A stretch of 64,000 bases of DNA. It comes from an uncultured Candidatus Saccharibacteria bacterium (GTDB lineage: Bacteria; Patescibacteriota; Saccharimonadia; Saccharimonadales; SZUA-47). Position numbers and translations under genes: made by a program. Of the stretch, positions 8,383-53,145 are shown piece after piece. Each line of letters starts with the position of its first letter. The first letter of the stretch is position 1. The stretch lies in assembly GCA_964419675.1 (NCBI GenBank), contig CAYQPN010000001.1, forward strand, positions 173,060-237,059, written 5' to 3'. The notes under the pieces are model-generated. The model saw only the letters and a program-made list of their open reading frames with translations. It had not been told where the DNA came from and searched no databases.

Positions 8383-8550
8383 CATTGAGAGCCCAATGAT
8401 GGGAGTAATAATTAAGATTAAAAAGAAAGGGACTTTGCCTGCAGCTCTTGCAGCTAAAAGGGAAAAGAGCAGCCGGAACAGGGAATTTACTTCACTGTCC
8501 CGCGCGTCGAGGAAAACCGTAGGTTGTCCTTGAATAGCGAAGCGGTAATT

Positions 8551-9841: not shown

Positions 9842-10369
9842 ATGTCCAAGAATCGAAGTGGAACTAGAAAAGTTTTTCAAGGTGGTGCGTTAGCTGGCGT
9901 CGGCACAGACCAGCTGTATGGTGGAGGTTATCGTCATCAAACACCTCAGAAACCCGCGCAACTAGTGGAGGCTGTAATTAGAGGATTCAAAAATAGCGAC
10001 AGAGTGACAAGCGGTGTCAAAGATTTAAGTAGGCGAATACTAACAGTTTGGTCAAATGATTCAACTCCGGTTAGAAGTCGTGATTTTTGGATAATGCACG
10101 ATAGTGAAAGAGCACTCACATCATATGTACACGCGTTCGCTCTAGGTTCTCCAGCCCTAGCCTATTGCTCTGTCGTTGACTCAAATAATCAACCTATTGC
10201 CACAGGAGATTTATTTAATCCGGATAGGCACAGTGCTAGTCTCTTGGCAGGAGTTGGCTTAGTTGAAGTTTTAGGTGGGAAAGAACAGTTTGCTGCTTAT
10301 GAAGCTCAAAGACTAGAGGAACAATCTTATGCTGCCTTATATACTAGGCGGAGACAGTGGGATTGGTGA
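9842..10369 (+). CDS. Hypothetical protein, 175 aa, Arg/Gly/Ala-rich and Lys-poor; no family recognised
   Basis: ORF with a good AAGGAG Shine-Dalgarno 7 nt upstream of the ATG. By my count it has 15 R and 6 K. It occupies the position where ylxR/infB normally follow nusA. Confidence 0.5.
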   Translation: MSKNRSGTRKVFQGGALAGVGTDQLYGGGYRHQTPQKPAQLVEAVIRGFKNSDRVTSGVKDLSRRILTVWSNDSTPVRSRDFWIMHDSERALTSYVHAFALGSPALAYCSVVDSNNQPIATGDLFNPDRHSASLLAGVGLVEVLGGKEQFAAYEAQRLEEQSYAALYTRRRQWDW

Positions 10370-36067: not shown

Positions 36068-36478
36068 ATGCCAACAATCAATCAATTAGTTAGGAAGCCT
36101 CGTAAAACGGCTAAGCCTAAAAGTAAATCACCTGCGCTTCACCGCGTGGTGAATAACTTAAATAACACAAACTACGAAAAATCTGCCCCGTTTAAGCGTG
36201 GGGTTTGTGTAAAAGTAACTACTAAAACACCTAAAAAACCTAACTCAGCCTTGCGTAAAGTTGCCCGCGTTCGTTTGAACAACGGCTACGAAGTGTGGGC
36301 ATATATTGGTGGTGAAGGTCATAATTTGCAAGAACACGCAGTGGTAATTATCCGCGGTGGTCGTGTTAAGGATCTTCCTGGTGTTAGATACCACATTGTT
36401 CGCGGGGCTCTAGACCTTCAAGGTGTTCAAGACCGTAAAAGAGGCCGAAGTAAATACGGCACAAAGAAGGGCAAATAA
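36068..36478 (+). CDS. rpsL: 30S ribosomal protein S12
   Basis: [10 protein letters not shown]...[17 protein letters not shown]...VRYHIVRG. Confidence 0.97.
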
Positions 36479-36480
36479 TT

Positions 36481-36960
36481 ATGCCACGTAAAACTACTAA
36501 AGCTTTGGTTCGCCCAAAACTACCAGATCGAAAATATAATTCTGAAATGGTACAGCGATTAATAAACCGTGTAATGCTAAATGGTAAAAAACAGTTAGCA
36601 GAACGCATTGTTTATGAAGGAATGGAAAAAGCCGCAAAAAAAGTAAAAAACGAGAATGTTATCGAAGTTTTTGATAAAGCAATAAAGAACGTAACTCCAT
36701 TTATGGAAACTCGTTCACGACGTGTCGGTGGTGCTAACTATCAAATTCCTTTTGAAGTTAAAGGTCAACGTCAAAAACATCTAACTGTTATGTGGTTTGT
36801 TCAAGCAACACGTGCTAAAAAAGGTATGCCAATGAGTGAACGTATTGCAATTGAGCTTGCAGACGCATATAACCAAACTGGTGTAGCCTTCAAGAAAAAA
36901 GAAGATACCCACAAAATGGCAGAAGCTAACCGAGCCTTCGCTCACTTCGCGAGAACTTAA
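36481..36960 (+). CDS. rpsG: 30S ribosomal protein S7
   Basis: MPRK...SRRVGGANYQIPFEV...ANRAFAHF. Confidence 0.97.
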   Translation: MPRKTTKALVRPKLPDRKYNSEMVQRLINRVMLNGKKQLAERIVYEGMEKAAKKVKNENVIEVFDKAIKNVTPFMETRSRRVGGANYQIPFEVKGQRQKHLTVMWFVQATRAKKGMPMSERIAIELADAYNQTGVAFKKKEDTHKMAEANRAFAHFART

Positions 36961-36962
36961 GT

Positions 36963-37334
36963 ATGGGTGATGTTCTTCAAGCTGAAGTTAGGCCTCCAGC
37001 TTTAGTCGCCACCGCTCTCGGATGCCCTTATGGAAAAAGTGGTGAACAAGCAATGCTAGCAGACGACCAGATGCATGAGATTCTAAAACCAACAGATGGT
37101 TTTAAAGAAGAAGATGATGAACTGGTCTTTCTTGAAACTGTGGCTGAAGCACAAAATAACGCTCTAAACATATCCCGTGCAATACTGGCTTGTGAAACCT
37201 GCCAAGGTAATCCGCATACAGTAGACTTGACAGATAAAGTTTGCGCTTTTGCTTTGGACGCCTGCATGGGAAACGTAGGTAATCCGATTGATGTTAACCA
37301 ATATTTAGAATCACGTGACGACTTCGGCAATTAA
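36963..37334 (+). CDS. Hypothetical acidic 123-aa Cys-containing protein inserted between rpsG and fusA
   Basis: ATG lies 2 nt after the rpsG stop with no separate Shine-Dalgarno. By my count it has 22 D/E, 4 K and 5 Cys including CETC. I recognise no family, and the antisense frame is also open. Confidence 0.4.
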   Translation: MGDVLQAEVRPPALVATALGCPYGKSGEQAMLADDQMHEILKPTDGFKEEDDELVFLETVAEAQNNALNISRAILACETCQGNPHTVDLTDKVCAFALDACMGNVGNPIDVNQYLESRDDFGN

Positions 37335-37372
37335 ACAACTTAAAACACTTTAGGGAAAAAGGACTGAAAAAA

Positions 37373-39460
37373 ATGGCAGGAAAAAAAGTAACACTAGATA
37401 AAATTAGAAACATCGGAATTATTGCACATATTGATGCCGGTAAAACCACAACAACTGAAGGTATTTTGTACCGAACAGGTTTGAAGCATAAAATTGGTGC
37501 TGTACACGACGGCGAGACTACAACTGACTGGATGGCACAAGAGCGTGAACGTGGTATTACCATTGTATCCGCCGCTGTAACTTGCTATTGGAAAGACCAC
37601 CAAATTAACATTATTGATACTCCAGGTCATATCGACTTCACTGTTGAAGTAGAACGCTCACTTCGTGTTCTTGACGGTGCTGTCGTAGTATTTGACGGTA
37701 AAATGGGCGTTGAGAGTCAATCTGAAACTGTTTGGCGTCAGGCTGATAAGTACGGCGTACCTCGTATTTGCTTTATTAATAAGATTAACCAAACTGGCGG
37801 AGACTTTTATAAATCACTTGAAAGTATCCATAACAGGCTTACAAAAGCAGCCTTTCCAATTCATCTGCCTATTGGTTTTGAACAGAGCATAAATGGAATC
37901 GTAGATTTAGTGTCTATGAAGGCCTACACATATAAAGATTTTACAGATAAAGAACTTGTAGTTGGTGAAATTCCGGCAGATATGATGGATCAAGTTAAAA
38001 AATACCGTAGCTTGCTTATTGAAAATGCTGTAGCCGAAGACGAAAAGATGCTTGAAAAATATTTTGAAGTCGGTGAAGAAGGTTTAAGCGAAGCGGAAAT
38101 TAAAGAAGCAATACGTTTAGCAGTGTTGGGCGGAAAGTTTTTTGTCGTAACTGGCGGAGACGGACGAGGCGTAATTGTTGAAAAAGTTCTAGATTTAGTT
38201 ACTGAACTTATGCCAAGCCCAATCGATAGGGGCAGTACTTGGGGAGAAGACGCAAAAACTGGGGACAAGCTAGAACGAAAACCTTCAGAATCAGAACCTA
38301 TGTCAGGCCTAGCATTTAAAATTGCAACCGACCCGTTTGTCGGAAAGTTAGCTTATTTTAGAGTTTATTCGGGTAAATTAGTATCTGGTTCGTATGTATT
38401 GAATAGTTCAAACGGTGAAAAAGAAAGAATTGGCCGTATCGTAAGAATGCAGGCCGACAAACGTGAAGAAGTACCAGAAGTTACGGCCGGAGATATAGCA
38501 GCAATTGTTGGGCTTAAGGCCACTACTACTGGTCATACATTAAGCGACCCAGCTCATCCGATCGTGCTAGAAAGCATAACATTCCCAGAACCACCTGTAA
38601 GTATTGCAATCGAGCCTAAAACTAAGGCTGACCAAGAAAAAATGAGCCTTGCCATGCAAAGGCTTGCAGAAGAAGACCCAACGTTTAGAATCAAAGTTGA
38701 TGCTGAAACTGGTCAAACAGTTATTAGTGGTATGGGTGAGCTTCATCTTGAAATCATTGTAGATAGAATGAAACGCGAATTTGCGGTTGAGGCAAACATC
38801 GGAGCACCACAGGTAGCGTACCGTGAGACTATCCGCAAAGAAAATGTTGAAGTGCAAGGTAAATTTATTCGTCAGTCTGGTGGACGTGGTCAGTACGGTG
38901 ACGTATGGCTTAGACTGTCGCCAAACGAACAAGGTAAAGGCTTTGAGTTTATTAACTCTATTAAGGGAGGAACTGTTCCTTCTGAGTATATAAAACCTGT
39001 ACAACAGGGAATAATCGAAGCTATGAACAATGGTGTATTAGCTGGATACCCAGTTGTTGACATTAAAGCTGAGCTATATGATGGTTCTTACCACGATGTA
39101 GACTCTAACGAAATGGCCTTTAAAATCGCCGGTTCAATGGCGCTTCAAGCTGGCGTAAAAAACGCAAAACCAGTACTTCTAGAACCTATCATGAAAGTAG
39201 TTGTTGTTACTCCTGAAAACTTTATGGGTGACGTAATCGGTGACTTGAACGGTAAGCGTGGCCGTGTTGAAACAATGGAAGATTTGAATGCTGGAATTAA
39301 AGAAATAACTGCGTTTGTACCGTTAGGTGAAATGTTTGGGTACACTACTAATCTGCGCTCAATGTCACAAGGAAGAGCTAGCTCCTCAATGGAACTTGAC
39401 CACTATGCCGACGTTCCAAATAACGTCGCCGAAGCCATAGCTGCCAAAAACGCAAAGTAA
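37373..39460 (+). CDS. fusA: Elongation factor G
   Basis: G-domain motifs AHIDAGKTT, DTPGH and NKID/NKIN, plus conserved domains II-V. Confidence 0.97.
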   Translation: MAGKKVTLDKIRNIGIIAHIDAGKTTTTEGILYRTGLKHKIGAVHDGETTTDWMAQERERGITIVSAAVTCYWKDHQINIIDTPGHIDFTVEVERSLRVLDGAVVVFDGKMGVESQSETVWRQADKYGVPRICFINKINQTGGDFYKSLESIHNRLTKAAFPIHLPIGFEQSINGIVDLVSMKAYTYKDFTDKELVVGEIPADMMDQVKKYRSLLIENAVAEDEKMLEKYFEVGEEGLSEAEIKEAIRLAVLGGKFFVVTGGDGRGVIVEKVLDLVTELMPSPIDRGSTWGEDAKTGDKLERKPSESEPMSGLAFKIATDPFVGKLAYFRVYSGKLVSGSYVLNSSNGEKERIGRIVRMQADKREEVPEVTAGDIAAIVGLKATTTGHTLSDPAHPIVLESITFPEPPVSIAIEPKTKADQEKMSLAMQRLAEEDPTFRIKVDAETGQTVISGMGELHLEIIVDRMKREFAVEANIGAPQVAYRETIRKENVEVQGKFIRQSGGRGQYGDVWLRLSPNEQGKGFEFINSIKGGTVPSEYIKPVQQGIIEAMNNGVLAGYPVVDIKAELYDGSYHDVDSNEMAFKIAGSMALQAGVKNAKPVLLEPIMKVVVVTPENFMGDVIGDLNGKRGRVETMEDLNAGIKEITAFVPLGEMFGYTTNLRSMSQGRASSSMELDHYADVPNNVAEAIAAKNAK

Positions 39461-39535
39461 AGTTAGTAAATATGTCTAGCAAGGCATAAAAACTGTCTCT
39501 AAAGCTACATAGAGTACTGCGCTCAGATTAAAGTA

Positions 39536-39564
39536 TTTACTAACCCAAACAGGTATGTTATAAT
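39536..39564 (+). promoter_or_regulatory. Strong promoter TTTACT-N17-TGtTATAAT ending 6 nt before the ATG of the fusA-tuf orphan ORF
   Basis: TTTACT at 39536-39541, TG at 39556-39557, TATAAT at 39559-39564 and ATG at 39571. This geometry predicts a leaderless transcript. Confidence 0.55.
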
Positions 39565-39570
39565 ATCTTT

Positions 39571-40140
39571 ATGATTAGAGGAAATGGTACAGAATTTGAT
39601 CCGGCTGCAACAATAGCTACTGCAGGCAAGATGATTGGTAGTATTAACACTCCCGAAATGGTAGAGGCTGTAAACCTAATGTTGGGCTTAGTTGAAAAAC
39701 CTACTCCACAAACGGAAGATAGGTGCGGAGAGCTAACATGGGGCTTAAGTGTTAGGACTCCAGAAGCAGATGCATACTTGCAAGCTGATGCTGTAAGACT
39801 TGGTGCTCGTGTTGCTTTAGAGGGCGTCAGAAATTCAGACTACGCGGAATCGCCGGAACTGAACTGGTTACTCTTGTTAAGAGGTAGTATTCAAAGCACG
39901 TTAAGAGGCATTCCAGGCAGGAGAAGATTAGGCTCAAACGACCTAGGCTTGAGAGCTTATGCAAGGCTGGAGGGTACCGAACTGATAAGTTGGTTGCTTA
40001 ATCCAAGAACTGAAAGTGGCAAAGATGTACAATCTGCCAGAGCGGTAAGGGCCGCACTAGACCAAGCTGTTGGGCTAGGTGTGGTTGGAAGAATGTATAC
40101 CCCACCAAAATTTAAGCTGAGCAGTTCGCGGTCTAAATAG
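39571..40140 (+). CDS. Hypothetical 189-aa Arg/Leu/Gly/Ala-rich, Lys-poor protein inserted between fusA and tuf
   Basis: Long ORF with its own promoter. By my count it has 18 R and 6 K. I recognise no family. Confidence 0.5.
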   Translation: MIRGNGTEFDPAATIATAGKMIGSINTPEMVEAVNLMLGLVEKPTPQTEDRCGELTWGLSVRTPEADAYLQADAVRLGARVALEGVRNSDYAESPELNWLLLLRGSIQSTLRGIPGRRRLGSNDLGLRAYARLEGTELISWLLNPRTESGKDVQSARAVRAALDQAVGLGVVGRMYTPPKFKLSSSRSK

Positions 40141-40373
40141 AGCTTTACAAGTTTTAAATTATTCGGTAATATATTGATAACTCGCGTGAGGGCTTTTGCT
40201 AGTGACGTCATAAAACACTAGTCAATATGGATCGCGAAAGTAACAATTCATTAAACCCTTATAAACTAAAAGGTGGGATAGCAACCACAAAAGAAGTAAG
40301 TAGGATTTATAGCGTACTTAAATAGCTATAAAACAACTAGTTACTTTAAAATCCCTGAAAGGAATTTTAAAAA

Positions 40374-41555
40374 ATGGCAAATTTTGACAGAACTAAGCCA
40401 CACGTAAACGTAGGAACTATGGGTCACGTTGACCACGGTAAAACTACGCTTACAGCTGCAATAACTGCAGTACTAGCAAAGAAAATGCCTAGCGAAACGA
40501 ACAAAGCTGTAGCCTTTGATCAAATCGACAAAGCACCAGAAGAGAAGGCTCGTGGTATTACCATTGCAACTTCTCACCAAGAATATGAGTCAGAAAAGCG
40601 TCACTACGCACACGTAGACATGCCAGGTCATGCTGACTACGTAAAGAACATGATTACTGGAGCTGCCCAGGTTGACGGAGCAATATTGGTTGTATCAGCC
40701 GCTGATGGTCCTATGCCCCAAACTCGTGAACACGTTTTGCTTGCTAACCAAGTTGGAGTTCCAAAAATCGTTGTTTTCTTAAACAAGATGGATGTTGCAG
40801 ACGCAGAGCTAGTTGAATTAGTCGAAATGGACATTCGTGAACTACTTTCAAAGTATGGTTACGATGAAAATTCACCAATAGTTAAGGGTTCTGCACTAAA
40901 AGCTCTTGAAGGTGATGCAACTTATGAAGAATCAATCATGGAGCTTGTAAAGGCCATGGATGATTTTATTGAAGAACCAAAGAGAGATCTAGACAAGCCA
41001 TTCTTGATGCCTATTGAGGATGTTTTCTCAATTAAAGGTCGCGGTACAGTTGCTACTGGACGTATTGAAACTGGCGTAGTTAAAGTTAACGACGAAATTG
41101 AAATTGTTGGAATCCGCCCAACAGTGAAATCAGTTGTTACAGGAATTGAAGCTTTCAAAAAGTCTCTAGACCAAGGGCAAGCCGGTGACAACGCAGGTGT
41201 ACTTTTAAGAGGTATTGAGCGTGAAGACATCGAAAGAGGTCAGGTTCTATGTAAGCCAGGAACAATTACTCCTCACACAGAATTTGATGCAGAGGTTTAC
41301 GTTTTGACTAAAGAAGAAGGTGGACGACACACCCCGTTTTTCAAGGGATACAAGCCACAGTTCTACTTTAGAACAACAGACGTAACTGGTGAGGTTGAAC
41401 TTCCGGCTGACAAAGAAATGGTTATGCCAGGTGACACAATAACCTTCAAAGTGAAATTGCTTGCGCCGATTGCTATGGATCAGGGACTACGTTTTGCTAT
41501 CCGTGAGGGTGGCCGAACCGTAGGTGCTGGTGTTGTTACAAAAATTACTAAGTAA
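40374..41555 (+). CDS. tuf: Elongation factor Tu
   Basis: [18 protein letters not shown] and NKMD motifs, with near-universal EF-Tu sequence throughout. Confidence 0.98.
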
Positions 41556-41577
41556 TTAATGCGACTAACTGGTCACT

Positions 41578-41620
41578 AAACAAATTAGGGGTCGATAAAT
41601 CGACTCCTAATTTGTTTGTT
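41578..41620 (+). terminator. Intrinsic terminator after tuf
   Basis: 18-bp stem (AAACAAATTAGGGGTCGA / TCGACTCCTAATTTGTTT with one G-U pair), loop TAAA, and a T-rich trail. Confidence 0.75.
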
Positions 41621-41871
41621 CTTGGCATATATTGAAAGTTTTCGCTCTGTATCAAAAATAGCAGTATTAGGTATACAGCTAGATTTTTGCTCCAGAACGA
41701 AGAGCTTCCAATCTGCACTCAATCCAGTCAGTCTAAGGTCCAAGCTACAAATAAGTTTACTAATGGCTTACTTTATTGTAAAATCAGATCATAAACTAAT
41801 CGTGGTGACTAAAAGTCGTCTTGTTTCGCTTAAGAATATAAGAAGATGTTACATCACAGGGAGAATTTTTT

Positions 41872-42306
41872 ATGGCGGAAGCCAAGAAACCAGTAGAAAA
41901 AAAAGCAAAACCAGCAGCTAAGCCAGTTGCTAAAGCTGAAGTTAAAGCACCAGAAGTTAAAAAGTCTGCGCATGTAGCTAAGCCAGCTGAAGCAGCACCA
42001 ATGAAGCAGAGAATTCGTATTCGTTTAAAGGCTTATGACCACAAGGTTATTGACCAGTCAGCAAAACAAATTGTTGACACAGCACTTAGAACTGGAGCAA
42101 CAATTGCCGGCCCGATACCTCTCCCAACACGTAAAAGTACCTTTACTGTTGTAAAAAGCCCTCACGTATACAAAAAAGGCCGTGAACAATTTGAAATGCG
42201 TATTCACAAACGTCTTATTGATGTTCTTGAGCCAACCCCAAAGACAATTGATTCTCTTATGAATCTTAGTCTTCCTGCTGGCTGCGACGCAGAAATAAAG
42301 ATGTAA
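41872..42306 (+). CDS. rpsJ: 30S ribosomal protein S10 with 43-aa Lys/Ala/Pro-rich N-terminal extension
   Basis: The S10 core starts at M44 ([14 protein letters not shown]). GGGAGA Shine-Dalgarno precedes the ATG at 41872, while no Shine-Dalgarno precedes the internal ATG at 42001. Confidence 0.9.
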
Positions 42307-42359
42307 CTTTAAGGTTAAGAGTCTGGCATCTAAGATCAGGGGATGGTAGAATATTGCTA

Positions 42360-42653
42360 ATGGTTAAGAAAAAGAAAACTTTATATAAAAATAGTAGAAA
42401 AAATGCATCGGTTGACAGGGACTCTGCATTCTTCTTGAAAGCTGTGGTATTTTTGATTCTTGGATCTCAGTGGATATATATTGAGTCTGCAGGGAGTAAT
42501 TTTCAGATACCAATCCCCGTAGGATTAATTTTAGGGCTAGTTTTCGCCACACATGAACACTTTAAAATTGATCGTAAAATTGAATATATTATCCTTTTGT
42601 TTGCTTCATTCATATCCTTCTGGCTCCCCTTGGGTCTAGTGTTGCAAGTCTAG
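42360..42653 (+). CDS. Small hypothetical membrane protein (about 97 aa, 3 predicted TM helices) between rpsJ and rplC
   Basis: Lys-rich N-terminus followed by three hydrophobic stretches (FFLKAVVFLILGSQWIYI, IPVGLILGLVFA, IILLFASFISFWLPLGLVL). The start may be ATG 42360 or TTG 42354. Confidence 0.5.
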   Translation: MVKKKKTLYKNSRKNASVDRDSAFFLKAVVFLILGSQWIYIESAGSNFQIPIPVGLILGLVFATHEHFKIDRKIEYIILLFASFISFWLPLGLVLQV

Positions 42654-42711
42654 CATATCGTGACTTGTGACTCGAAACTCCCAACTTTTTCATTGTAGAA
42701 TTGTCTACGTA

Positions 42712-42741
42712 TTGACAGATGAAATAATCTTATGTTAAACT
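42712..42741 (+). promoter_or_regulatory. Promoter TTGACA-N18-TGtTAAACT for the rplC-led operon
   Basis: TTGACA at 42712-42717, TG at 42733-42734 and TAAACT at 42736-42741. Confidence 0.55.
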
Positions 42742-42759
42742 GTTAGGAACATCGCTATT

Positions 42760-42817
42760 ACTTGGTGATTTGGTAAGTCCAAAGAAAAGGGAAACTGCCT
42801 CACACCAAGTGTTTTTA
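42760..42817 (+). terminator. Leader hairpin plus U-run (attenuator-like) upstream of rplC-rplD
   Basis: ACUUGGUG (42760-42767) pairs with CACCAAGU (42803-42810), enclosing the inner hairpin UUUGG-UAAGU-CCAAA. It is followed by GUUUUUAU and lies 65 nt before the rplC ATG. Confidence 0.45.
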
Positions 42818-42881
42818 TGTCTAAGACAATAGAAACAGTAACAGTTGTTTTAAGTGATAAAAGTTAATAACAAAGGGATAA

Positions 42882-43502
42882 ATGAAGGCATTAATTACCA
42901 GAAAAATTGGCATGACAAGCACAATCAGCGATGATGGTGTTGTTAGTGCTGTTACTCTGCTTTCTGCAACTCCCTGCGTAATTACTCAAATTAAGAATGA
43001 TGAAATTGACGGTTATCAAGCCTTACAAATCGGATTTGAAGAAACAAAAAAAGCTAATAACGCACAACTCGGCCACAACAAGCCAGCTAATATTCAACCT
43101 AAGATTGTGCGCGAATTTAGAACAGAAACAACAGAATTACCAGAAGATCTCGCAGTAGGAAGCAAACTTACAGCCGAGGTCTTTTCAGTTGGAGACATGG
43201 TTGACGTTGTTGGTACAAGCAAAGGTAAGGGTCACGCAGGAACAATCAAGAGACACAACTTTCACAGACAACGAGCAACACATGGTGGCAAAGGTGACAC
43301 TCGAAAAGTTGGTTCAATTGGTTCTATGTACCCTCAAAAGATTTTTAAAGGCAAGAAAATGGCCGGACGTATGGGTGGCGAACGCATAACTGTTAAGAAC
43401 CTTAAAGTTTCGATAGTTGATGCAGAAAAAGGCTTACTAGCAATAACTGGTGCAATTCCTGGCCCAAGACACAGCATTGTCCTTGTAAAAGGAGTCAAAT
43501 AA
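42882..43502 (+). CDS. rplC: 50S ribosomal protein L3
   Basis: MKALITRKIGMT...GKGHAGTIKRHNF. Confidence 0.96.
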   Translation: MKALITRKIGMTSTISDDGVVSAVTLLSATPCVITQIKNDEIDGYQALQIGFEETKKANNAQLGHNKPANIQPKIVREFRTETTELPEDLAVGSKLTAEVFSVGDMVDVVGTSKGKGHAGTIKRHNFHRQRATHGGKGDTRKVGSIGSMYPQKIFKGKKMAGRMGGERITVKNLKVSIVDAEKGLLAITGAIPGPRHSIVLVKGVK

Positions 43503-51654: not shown

Positions 51655-53145
51655 ATGAATTGGCGAATAATATGGCGATCATTAAAGCATAACGATATGC
51701 GAAATCGGGTGTTGGCGGTATTAGGCATGATTATTGTTTTTCGTATGTTGGCACAAATACCAATACCCCTCGCAGACCCTACTACACTCAAAGATTTATT
51801 AAATACATTATTCACTGCGACTCAAAATACGCAGTTATTTAGTTTTTTGGATGTTCTTTCGGGCGGTGCATTAGCTAACTTCTCTATCATGCTAATTGGG
51901 CTGGGCCCCTACATTAATGCGAGTATTATAATGCAACTTCTGACCCAGGCAATTCCTAAACTTGAGGCGATGAATAAAGAGGGTGAATACGGACGAAAAA
52001 AGATTAATCAATACACTAGAATTCTTACCTTTCCGTTAGCTATTGTCCAATCAGTAGGAGCACTATATTTAGTAAGACAGCAGGCTCAACAAATATCCGG
52101 AGTAGATATCACCGCTAACGCCACCGCAGGAACTTGGATACTCATGGTCGCAGCTCTCACAGGTGGGGCGATGTTACTGATGTGGTTAGGTGAGCTTATA
52201 ACCGAAAAGGGTGTAGGAAATGGAATAAGCTTATTAATAACAGCAGGTATAGTATCTCAACTCCCTTCAACGGTCGCGTCTATTGTGACAAGTATCTTCT
52301 CGGGCGGAAGTAGTGTTACTTTACTCGGAAAGACTATAAACTATAGGACAGAATCCTTATTTATAGCGTTAACAATACTTGCAGCTACGATTTTGACTAC
52401 TTGGATAGTAGTGAAACTAAATGAGGCGAAAAGAAATATTATAATAAATTATGCTAAACGAGTACAGGGTAACCGCACATATGGAGGTGTAACAACCAAT
52501 TTGCCAGTTAAACTTATTACTGCTGGAGTAATACCTGTAATATTTGCAATTGCGTTCTTGAGTTTGCCTAGTTTTATTGGACAGTTGCTAACCACAAACA
52601 ACAGTGCCAGACTTGTAGAATTAGGAAATAATTTATTGTTATGGTTCCAACAACCATCTAGTCAAACTTTTGCACAACCAGGATGGATACCTTACATTTA
52701 TCCTATCGTGTACTTCACTCTAATTGTTATGTTCACCTACTTCTATACAAGCATAACTTTCAATGCAAAAGAAATTGCTGAAAATTTGCAGAAGCAAGGT
52801 GGATTTATAGAAAGTGTACGAAGTGGAGCAGCAACTGAAAAGTACTTGAAAGTAATAGTAAATAGATTAACTTTCTTTGGAAGCATCTCGCTTGGTTTAG
52901 TAGCTCTTGGTCCTATAGTTGGTCAAGTCTTTTTAGATACCAGTATATCCATAGGGGGAACTAGTGTATTGATTTTGGTGGCTGTAGCGCTTGAAACACT
53001 TCGTCAAGTTGAATCTAGGGCATTGATGGTAACATACGATGATTACTCAACACCAGATTTTGTATACGGACCTACGAACGCTGTAGAAGCTGCTAGTGGT
53101 GCTAGACGACTTAAGTTTTTACCTAAGAGAAAAGCAAAAAAATAA
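51655..53145 (+). CDS. secY: Preprotein translocase subunit SecY
   Basis: Ten-TM SecY pattern (LGMIIVFRMLAQIPIPL, GLGPYINASIIMQLL, WLGELITEKGVGNGISL). At 496 aa it has a C-terminal basic tail. Confidence 0.95.
   Translation: MNWRIIWRSLKHNDMRNRVLAVLGMIIVFRMLAQIPIPLADPTTLKDLLNTLFTATQNTQLFSFLDVLSGGALANFSIMLIGLGPYINASIIMQLLTQAIPKLEAMNKEGEYGRKKINQYTRILTFPLAIVQSVGALYLVRQQAQQISGVDITANATAGTWILMVAALTGGAMLLMWLGELITEKGVGNGISLLITAGIVSQLPSTVASIVTSIFSGGSSVTLLGKTINYRTESLFIALTILAATILTTWIVVKLNEAKRNIIINYAKRVQGNRTYGGVTTNLPVKLITAGVIPVIFAIAFLSLPSFIGQLLTTNNSARLVELGNNLLLWFQQPSSQTFAQPGWIPYIYPIVYFTLIVMFTYFYTSITFNAKEIAENLQKQGGFIESVRSGAATEKYLKVIVNRLTFFGSISLGLVALGPIVGQVFLDTSISIGGTSVLILVAVALETLRQVESRALMVTYDDYSTPDFVYGPTNAVEAASGARRLKFLPKRKAKK

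Follow-up and report, generated by a model that had tools for sequence, protein, structure and literature searches.

An orphan open reading frame with a predicted leaderless start in the fusA-tuf spacer of an uncultured Candidatus Saccharibacteria bacterium

Background

In Escherichia coli and most bacteria the classical str operon carries rpsL, rpsG, fusA and tufA in that order. The order rpsL, rpsG, fusA, tuf is kept in the DNA analysed here, a stretch of 64,000 nucleotides (nt) from an uncultured Candidatus Saccharibacteria bacterium (GenBank assembly GCA_964419675.1, contig CAYQPN010000001.1, positions 173,060 to 237,059; the whole stretch is called the window and positions are counted from its first letter). 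It differs from the classical operon in that tuf is preceded by a conserved promoter and leader of its own, here and across Saccharibacteria-like loci, and in that the rpsG-fusA and fusA-tuf spacers of such loci are expanded with lineage-specific genes. The subject of this report is ORF189, an orphan open reading frame (ORF) of 189 codons in the fusA-tuf spacer. An initial annotation, made from the sequence alone, had placed the two flanking genes 913 nt apart, and the coordinates (fusA stop at 39460, tuf ATG at 40374) confirm this distance.

Two further groups of described genes are relevant. Bacterial leaderless genes (Actinobacteria, Deinococcus, and the 'leaderless' class of GeneMarkS-2) are matched by ORF189 in the end of the -10 element 6 nt before the AUG, in the lack of a Shine-Dalgarno (SD) sequence, and in the recurrence of the pattern at many operon-leading genes of the genome; unlike theirs, the start of ORF189 is predicted from sequence geometry alone. 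ORFan genes of Patescibacteria and the Candidate Phyla Radiation (CPR), too, are small, without a detectable homologue, at most labelled 'hypothetical', located at variable loci, and native in codon usage. ORF189 departs from them in its unusually clear signals (an extended -10 element and exact leaderless geometry) and in its well-defined insertion site within the otherwise conserved rpsL-rpsG-fusA-tuf cluster. Saccharibacteria in cultivation live as epibionts on Actinobacteria and are naturally competent, and promoter regions taken from the tuf and rpsJ genes of TM7x have been used in Saccharibacteria to express resistance and reporter genes (PMC10633639).

Results and discussion

Coding signature of ORF189

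ORF189 is probably, though by no means certainly, a real, species-restricted orphan protein-coding gene in a defined slot that is empty or differently filled in relatives. A frame of this length is not expected by chance: none of 2000 simulated 913-nt sequences with the dinucleotide composition of the gap contained one, and only 2 of 2000 (0.1%) did so when the composition of the window was used. With the other window genes as training set, a three-periodic second-order Markov model scored ORF189 at +4.7 bits per 100 nt in frame, within the range of the window genes (1.6 to 14.6), against -7 to -38 in its other five frames. The synonymous-codon log-likelihood was 0.161 (range for real genes 0.099-0.320), and the codon choice outscored all 2000 of 2000 composition-weighted back-translations. 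GC contents at the three codon positions were 0.53, 0.51 and 0.35 (0.46 overall); the third position thus has the low GC content of the genome and the first two are GC-rich. On these grounds ORF189 resembles a genuine gene, and its codon usage is native. The proposal of the initial annotation that it is not a recent high-GC import agrees with the third-position value and with synonymous usage inside the range of the window genes.

The predicted protein contains 18 Arg and 6 Lys residues, and its ratio K/(K+R) of 0.25 is the lowest among 60 ORFs of the window. The claim that its Arg codons are mostly AGA or AGG was borne out (16 of 18, compared with 49% across 20 of the window's long genes). 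Lys, Phe, Ile, Asn and Tyr together make up 14% of residues, His is absent, and there is one Cys. No transmembrane segment was found (maximum Kyte-Doolittle hydropathy over 19 residues, 0.87) and no signal peptide, the N-terminus MIRGNGTEFDPAAT being polar.

A structured RNA or riboswitch in place of a gene was considered and rejected: Rfam was without a match at E <= 1 across 36.9-42.9 kb, and the ORF189 region showed no excess of RNA structure (folding z = +0.39).

Promoter and predicted leaderless start

Upstream of ORF189 lie the hexamer TTTACT (39536-39541), a 17-nt spacer that ends in an extended -10 motif, TG (39556-39557), and TATAAT (39559-39564), which together form the best-scoring plus-strand promoter site within 35.8-43 kb. 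The extended -10 class (TGn together with 10 or more of 12 matches) has 7 sites on the window's plus strand, where 0.5 would be expected per strand, an enrichment of about 14-fold. Those placed against the ORF list (8264, 8317, 39536, 42712, 51580/51581 and 53150) all lie in gaps between its entries, preceding the ORFs at 8524, 42882 (rplC) and 51655 and, in one case, following the ORF that ends at 53145. By our arithmetic from the window counts, the chance of such a site within 110 nt upstream of ORF189 is about 1e-3. When all promoter-like sites with at least 9 of 12 matches were counted there was no enrichment over shuffled sequences (16 vs 14.1), and the extended -10 class alone was significant.

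From the end of TATAAT (39564) to the A of the ATG (39571) there are exactly 6 nt, ATCTTT. An in-frame stop codon at 39541-39543 makes this ATG the first possible start, and no SD is present, GGAG, GAGG, AGGA and AAGG being absent from positions -20 to -4. The geometry from which a leaderless mRNA had been predicted (6-nt gap, ATG, no SD) is accordingly as described, and the coordinates and counts given for the promoter, the 6-nt distance, the 189 codons and the 18 Arg and 6 Lys residues were all reproduced.

To place this arrangement in its genomic setting, 60 ORFs of the window were divided into 26 without and 34 with an SD. A TANNNT hexamer ending 5-9 nt before the start was present in 12 of the 26 and in 1 of the 34 (Fisher p = 6.6e-5), with a background of 10% among all 1777 ATGs of the window. 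The slot genes of several relatives (loci numbered L003 and upward, described below) have comparable geometry: TGcTATAAT, 6 nt and ATG in L014; TATAAT, 9 nt and ATG in L005; and TATACT, 5 nt and TTG in L007. As far as sequence patterns can tell, the leaderless arrangement is an ordinary way for this organism to begin its transcription units and no oddity, and its frequency in the genome strengthens the prediction that ORF189 is expressed. A search of a literature library found no paper describing leaderless initiation in Saccharibacteria or CPR and no published 5'-end data for Patescibacteria. Other starts of leaderless type in the window include those at 493-, 1152, 18620, 23138, 26359, 57474 and 60241; ribosomal-protein genes within operons have SDs of AGGAG type instead.

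The tuf promoter and leader

The promoter of tuf, with the consensus CTTTACAAA-N17-TAnAAT, recurs in each of the ten closest relatives that were aligned (L003-L009, L020, L023 and L024), and similar sites were also matched in L014 and L017; in L020 it begins directly after the fusA stop. The initial annotation had argued that a dedicated promoter inside the str operon speaks for expression of ORF189. A strong promoter does precede the ORF, but its presence at this place is not odd, since tuf is separately promoted and the cluster is already split. Given the conservation of the tuf promoter and the activity of its TM7x counterpart (PMC10633639), ORF189 would be one more transcription unit in that split cluster.

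The tuf leader opens with GGTAACTCGCGTGAGGGC in most of the aligned relatives, and that of the window has a folding z-score of -3.1. It had no match in Rfam and could be an uncharacterised leader element. Promoter and leader together span 40144-40376 in the window, 4773-4862 in L007 and 8130-8217 in L020. The leader of the window is about 90 nt longer than those of the relatives; its 5' hairpin (CUCGCG...CGCGA) is shared by L007 and L020, and the hairpin at 40345-40371 includes the SD of tuf.

Search for relatives of ORF189

An exhaustive phmmer search of 1.84 billion representatives at 50% identity matched ORF189 (P0001) to itself alone, as did a word-index search of 5.8 billion clusters. Domain searches in Pfam, NCBIfam, PHROGs and PADLOC returned nothing, which upholds the statement that no domain is recognisable; a significant match to a known family, which would have explained the ORF trivially, was found in none of the libraries searched. 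JGI metagenome contigs, IMG/VR contigs and phage GenBank records contained no relatives, and tblastn against 50,697 phage records was empty. The identical protein is present in three independent data sets (a 252-kb NCBI contig, ENA ERZ3430527 and Logan SRR7369924), and the other copies are nucleotide-identical across the ORF.

Three other origins were tried and rejected. A paralogue or duplicated fragment within the window was found by neither tblastn nor tblastx. A pseudogene of a known family in another frame was sought with Pfam on the two longest antisense ORFs and with tblastx, and these gave nothing. For insertion of a mobile element, no flanking direct repeats were present and the PHROGs, PADLOC and phage and viral contig searches were negative; the sole repeat found around ORF189 was an 11-nt inverted repeat upstream.

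The fusA-tuf slot across relatives

Eighty fusA loci were compared, of which 21 among L003-L025 with tuf downstream were taken as Saccharibacteria-like. In non-Patescibacteria loci (Firmicutes, Proteobacteria, Acidobacteria and comparable groups) 27-170 nt separate fusA from tuf, so that the view of them as normally adjacent genes is correct for bacteria generally. It fails for the Saccharibacteria-like loci, where the gap exceeds 400 nt in 14 of 21 (expanded range 450 nt to 4.6 kb). By EF-G sequence the nearest relatives of the window are the Candidatus Saccharibacteria genomes L003-L009 (83-85% identity).

The comparison of the fusA-tuf junction that the initial annotation had suggested went against conservation of the frame: tblastn, phmmer and tblastx of ORF189 against the 80 loci and 105 gap ORFs found no positional orthologue, and ORF189 is absent from the gaps of the relatives. 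The slot is empty in L006, L008, L009, L020, L023 and L024, and in L003, L004, L005 and L007 it holds unrelated ORFs without a Pfam match. In blastn comparisons the 680-nt filling of the window's slot (promoter plus ORF189) had no DNA similarity to any relative and the spacer downstream of fusA had none either, while the tuf leader that follows had some. The slot is precisely bounded by the fusA stop and the predicted -35 element of tuf.

Two kinds of filling recur elsewhere. A DUF998 membrane protein (PF06197; E = 2e-12 in L014) occupies the slot in a clade of Saccharibacteria whose EF-G is about 71% identical, at 8137-8721 in L011, 6277-6876 in L013 and 8160-8780 in L014/L015; the gene of L014 is preceded by a terminator-like hairpin and a TGcTATAAT leaderless promoter. 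A small related ORF of 86-140 amino acids (aa) is found in more distant Patescibacteria (L018 8745-9101; L021 8118-8378, where the likeness was judged by eye; L022 8228-8599; L028 3897-4319; L032 8081-8413; and L036 8124-8432), with pairwise E-values to 1e-20 and a weak N-terminal likeness to Phd/YefM or RelB antitoxins (Pfam E = 0.006-0.06, under the Pfam cut-off).

A broader reading of these observations is that the interval from the fusA stop to the tuf promoter is a phylum-wide expression slot of Saccharibacteria, into which competent cells recombine strain-specific, separately promoted, leaderless accessory genes (ORF189, DUF998, the Phd/YefM-like ORFs and others) that act in host or phage interactions, with ORF189 as founder of a new family. 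We regard this as improbable. The existence across Saccharibacteria of a bounded, hypervariable and separately promoted fusA-tuf slot is nevertheless a more interesting by-product of the analysis than ORF189 itself.

Weighing the orphan-gene reading

Several points weigh against ORF189 being an established gene. Its expression, 5' end and protein are all predicted from sequence, and any statement on its function is a weak inference from composition. The second-position GC content (0.51) and the K/R ratio are atypical for the genome, and a single-sequence AlphaFold2 model, which is all-helical, is of low confidence (predicted local distance difference test score, pLDDT, 41). No relative was found even in genomes with 85% identical EF-G, and a young or a decaying sequence would look alike in this respect. 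Because the copies are identical, the ratio of nonsynonymous to synonymous substitution rates (dN/dS) is not measurable, and they say nothing on selection.

An unlikely but reasonable alternative is that ORF189 is a proto-gene or decaying remnant, transcribed and perhaps translated only through its position in a strongly transcribed spacer, behind a promoter selected for boosting tuf, with no function of its own and due for loss or replacement, as the turnover of slot contents among relatives would suggest. Its status as a singleton in 15 billion proteins fits such an origin, as do the empty slots of the close relatives L006, L008, L009 and L020, the different ORFs without Pfam match in other near relatives, the atypical amino-acid composition with the low-confidence structure model, and the lack of a terminator before tuf, so that the promoter would feed tuf. 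However, tuf already has its own conserved promoter, an open frame of 189 codons is unexpected by chance or after long decay, and in codon usage and in GC content by codon position the ORF matches an established gene. The ATG stands exactly at the predicted +1, an arrangement used by bona fide genes here. The sequence is also unlike AT-rich intergenic DNA that happens to be coding; ORF189 is too GC-rich and too poor in Lys, Phe, Ile, Asn and Tyr to have originated in an ordinary AT-rich spacer. Taken as a genuine orphan gene, with native codon usage and third-position GC, it could have diverged very fast or be an old import whose donor is unsampled.

If ORF189 is such a gene, RNA polymerase would start at or within 1-2 nt of 39571 by way of the extended -10 promoter, and 70S ribosomes would initiate directly on the leaderless mRNA. 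Since no terminator lies between them, transcripts of ORF189 would continue into the structured tuf leader and tuf and add to tuf transcription. The product would be a soluble, basic, mainly helical 20-kDa protein; lacking an export signal, it would remain in the cell. Its single Cys and the absence of His make a metal- or Cys/His-dependent enzyme less likely than an accessory protein with a binding, structural or regulatory role. The gene may have arrived by recombination, given the natural competence of Saccharibacteria, into a spacer that would tolerate insertions because fusA and tuf are promoted separately.

Expressed as predicted, ORF189 would be a tractable example of leaderless initiation in Patescibacteria, and would show that reduced, ultrasmall genomes still gain lineage-specific genes at a bounded, insertion-tolerant site beside the most highly expressed genes. 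Genetic work in Saccharibacteria might also use the slot as a neutral site of natural origin and its two promoters as a pair. Otherwise ORF189 is one more hypothetical protein among many in CPR, and nothing indicates a new mechanism or system.

Structure prediction and comparison with GH108 muramidases

Foldseek comparison of the AlphaFold2 model with the PDB, a check proposed in the initial annotation, gave no match below E = 1; template modelling scores were 0.1-0.3 and the matches were noise. No multiple sequence alignment could be built for ORF189, and seeding one with GH108 sequences would have been circular. The GH108 muramidases (PF05838 with PF09374; for example Salmonella TtsA, PDB 6v40) came into consideration through the top PDB sequence match, 6v40_A, a 197-aa PG_binding_3/GH108 protein with E = 0.58, which is chance level for the search. 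The match aligns TEDRCGELTWGLS with PDDRGGPTHWGIT, a short resemblance around DRxGxxTWG(I/L).

ORF189 might on this basis be a highly diverged GH108-type muramidase, similar to TtsA and phage endolysins (about 180 aa, GH108 plus PG_binding_3), that cuts host or self peptidoglycan in an epibiont. Apart from the 6v40_A match and the motif, the likeness consists of comparable lengths and a helical secondary-structure prediction, and the idea is very hard to sustain. A profile of 61 TtsA-like sequences, taken from viral contigs, scored ORF189 at 9.9 bits over 60 aligned residues, below the 13.1 bits of the single sequence; hhalign gave a probability of 2.3%; and PF05838 and PF09374 were silent even at E <= 10. 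The hhalign pairing sets G16-Y17-V18 with G39-L40-V41, hence E14 on M37, so that the catalytic Glu of the EGGY motif falls on a non-acidic residue, and there is no EGG in ORF189. A C-terminal PG_binding_3 domain had no Pfam match in ORF189 and the profile alignment ends at residue 107, and the empty tblastn search of phage records also counts against a muramidase. At the sequence level the assignment was rejected by the profile, profile-profile and catalytic-residue tests.

Lysine-poor ORFs of the window

The initial annotation had speculated that ORF189 and the ORFs at 9842, 10492, 20740 and 36963 share a Lys-poor character that marks a family of secreted or host-directed proteins, which might avoid Lys-directed tagging in a host; pupylation in an actinobacterial host would be an example of such tagging. 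In favour of this are the K/(K+R) of ORF189, the lowest in the window, the low Lys content of two further ORFs without known relatives (ORF175, K/(K+R) 0.29; ORF77, 0 K and 7 R), and the life of cultivated Saccharibacteria on Actinobacteria (PMC10633639).

The sequences do not bear the family out. All-against-all BLASTP found no mutual similarity among the five ORFs (best E for ORF189, 2.5), and tblastn of ORF189 against the window returned itself only. Four of the five are singletons at the 90% cluster level. ORF189 has neither signal peptide nor transmembrane segment, and there is no known delivery route for it into a host. Most of the five are poor in Lys, but the ORF at 36963 (ORF123) has 4 K and 3 R and is acidic, without an Arg skew. 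Composition offers a simpler account: in the ORFs at 9842, 36963 and 39571 the GC content of the first and/or second codon position is above that of core genes, with a native third position, and higher GC at the first two positions by itself shifts Lys (AAR) to Arg (AGR). The existence of such a family is highly implausible, and a link of these ORFs to secretion or evasion of tagging is unsupported.

Layout of the locus and neighbouring ORFs

Gene order in the window is rpoB, rpoC, rpsL (36068), rpsG (36481), the 123-aa ORF (36963), fusA, ORF189, tuf, rpsJ (41872), a 99-aa ORF (42354) and rplC. Coordinates of the features around ORF189 are collected in Table 1.

Table 1. Features of the fusA-tuf region, in window coordinates
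Feature	Coordinates	Strand	Remarks
fusA (EF-G)	37373..39460	+	695-aa ORF; bounds the slot upstream; EF-G identity to the Saccharibacteria metagenome-assembled genomes L003-L009, 83-85%
Post-fusA spacer	39461..39535	+	Bracketed by an 11-nt perfect inverted repeat, 39462-39472 / 39534-39544
Sigma-70-type extended -10 promoter, TTTACT-N17-TGtTATAAT	39536..39564	+	Predicted to drive ORF189
ORF189, orphan protein	39571..40140	+	189 aa, 20.4 kDa, isoelectric point 9.2; ATG at the predicted transcription start
Conserved tuf promoter, TTTACA-N17-TAATAT	40144..40172	+	Begins 4 nt past the stop of ORF189; bounds the slot downstream
tuf 5' leader	40173..40373	+	Structured; 5' part kept in L007 and L020; SD-containing hairpin 40345-40371
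tuf (EF-Tu)	40374..41555	+	393-aa ORF; Pfam GTP_EFTU domains found in the identical contig L001

Between the arms of the inverted repeat GTTAGTAAATA / TATTTACTAAC lie 61 nt of the interval from the fusA stop to the promoter of ORF189, and the repeat extends into the -35 element. About 0.2 such 11-nt pairs are expected by chance per 1.2 kb (our estimate), and the repeat could form a long-range stem in transcripts that read through from fusA. A terminator scan of the region reported no terminator-like site in the fusA-ORF189 spacer and found none in the ORF189-tuf interval.

ORF123 (36963-37334, plus strand) is a second orphan, on the other side of fusA. It encodes 123 aa with 22 Asp plus Glu and 5 Cys, and begins 2 nt after the rpsG stop without an SD. 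It was a singleton when 5.8 billion clusters were searched by word index (E <= 0.01), and it is absent from the rpsG-fusA spacer of every relative (spacers of 18 nt to 3.7 kb).

The identities of the conserved genes are mixed. By rpsL, rpsG, tuf and rpsJ (87-95%) the nearest relative of the window (36068-43502) is L020 (RFTN01000004.1, 5045-12340), whose EF-G is merely 68% identical; L003-L009 have 83-85% identical EF-G and ribosomal proteins less similar than those of L020. This pattern suggests that the fusA allele was replaced by recombination in one lineage.

Between rpsJ and rplC lies a hydrophobic ORF of 99 aa (42354-42653, plus strand) with a coding score of -3.0 and an uncertain TTG start. 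ORFs with 37-48% identity occur at the matching place in L003, L004, L005 and L023, and given this conservation of position in four relatives it is probably a real small membrane protein despite its poor coding score. The preceding rpsJ (S10; 41872-42306, plus strand) carries an N-terminal extension of about 44 aa rich in Lys, Ala and Pro; the S10 proteins of relatives align from residue 22-47 onward only, so that the extension is variable.

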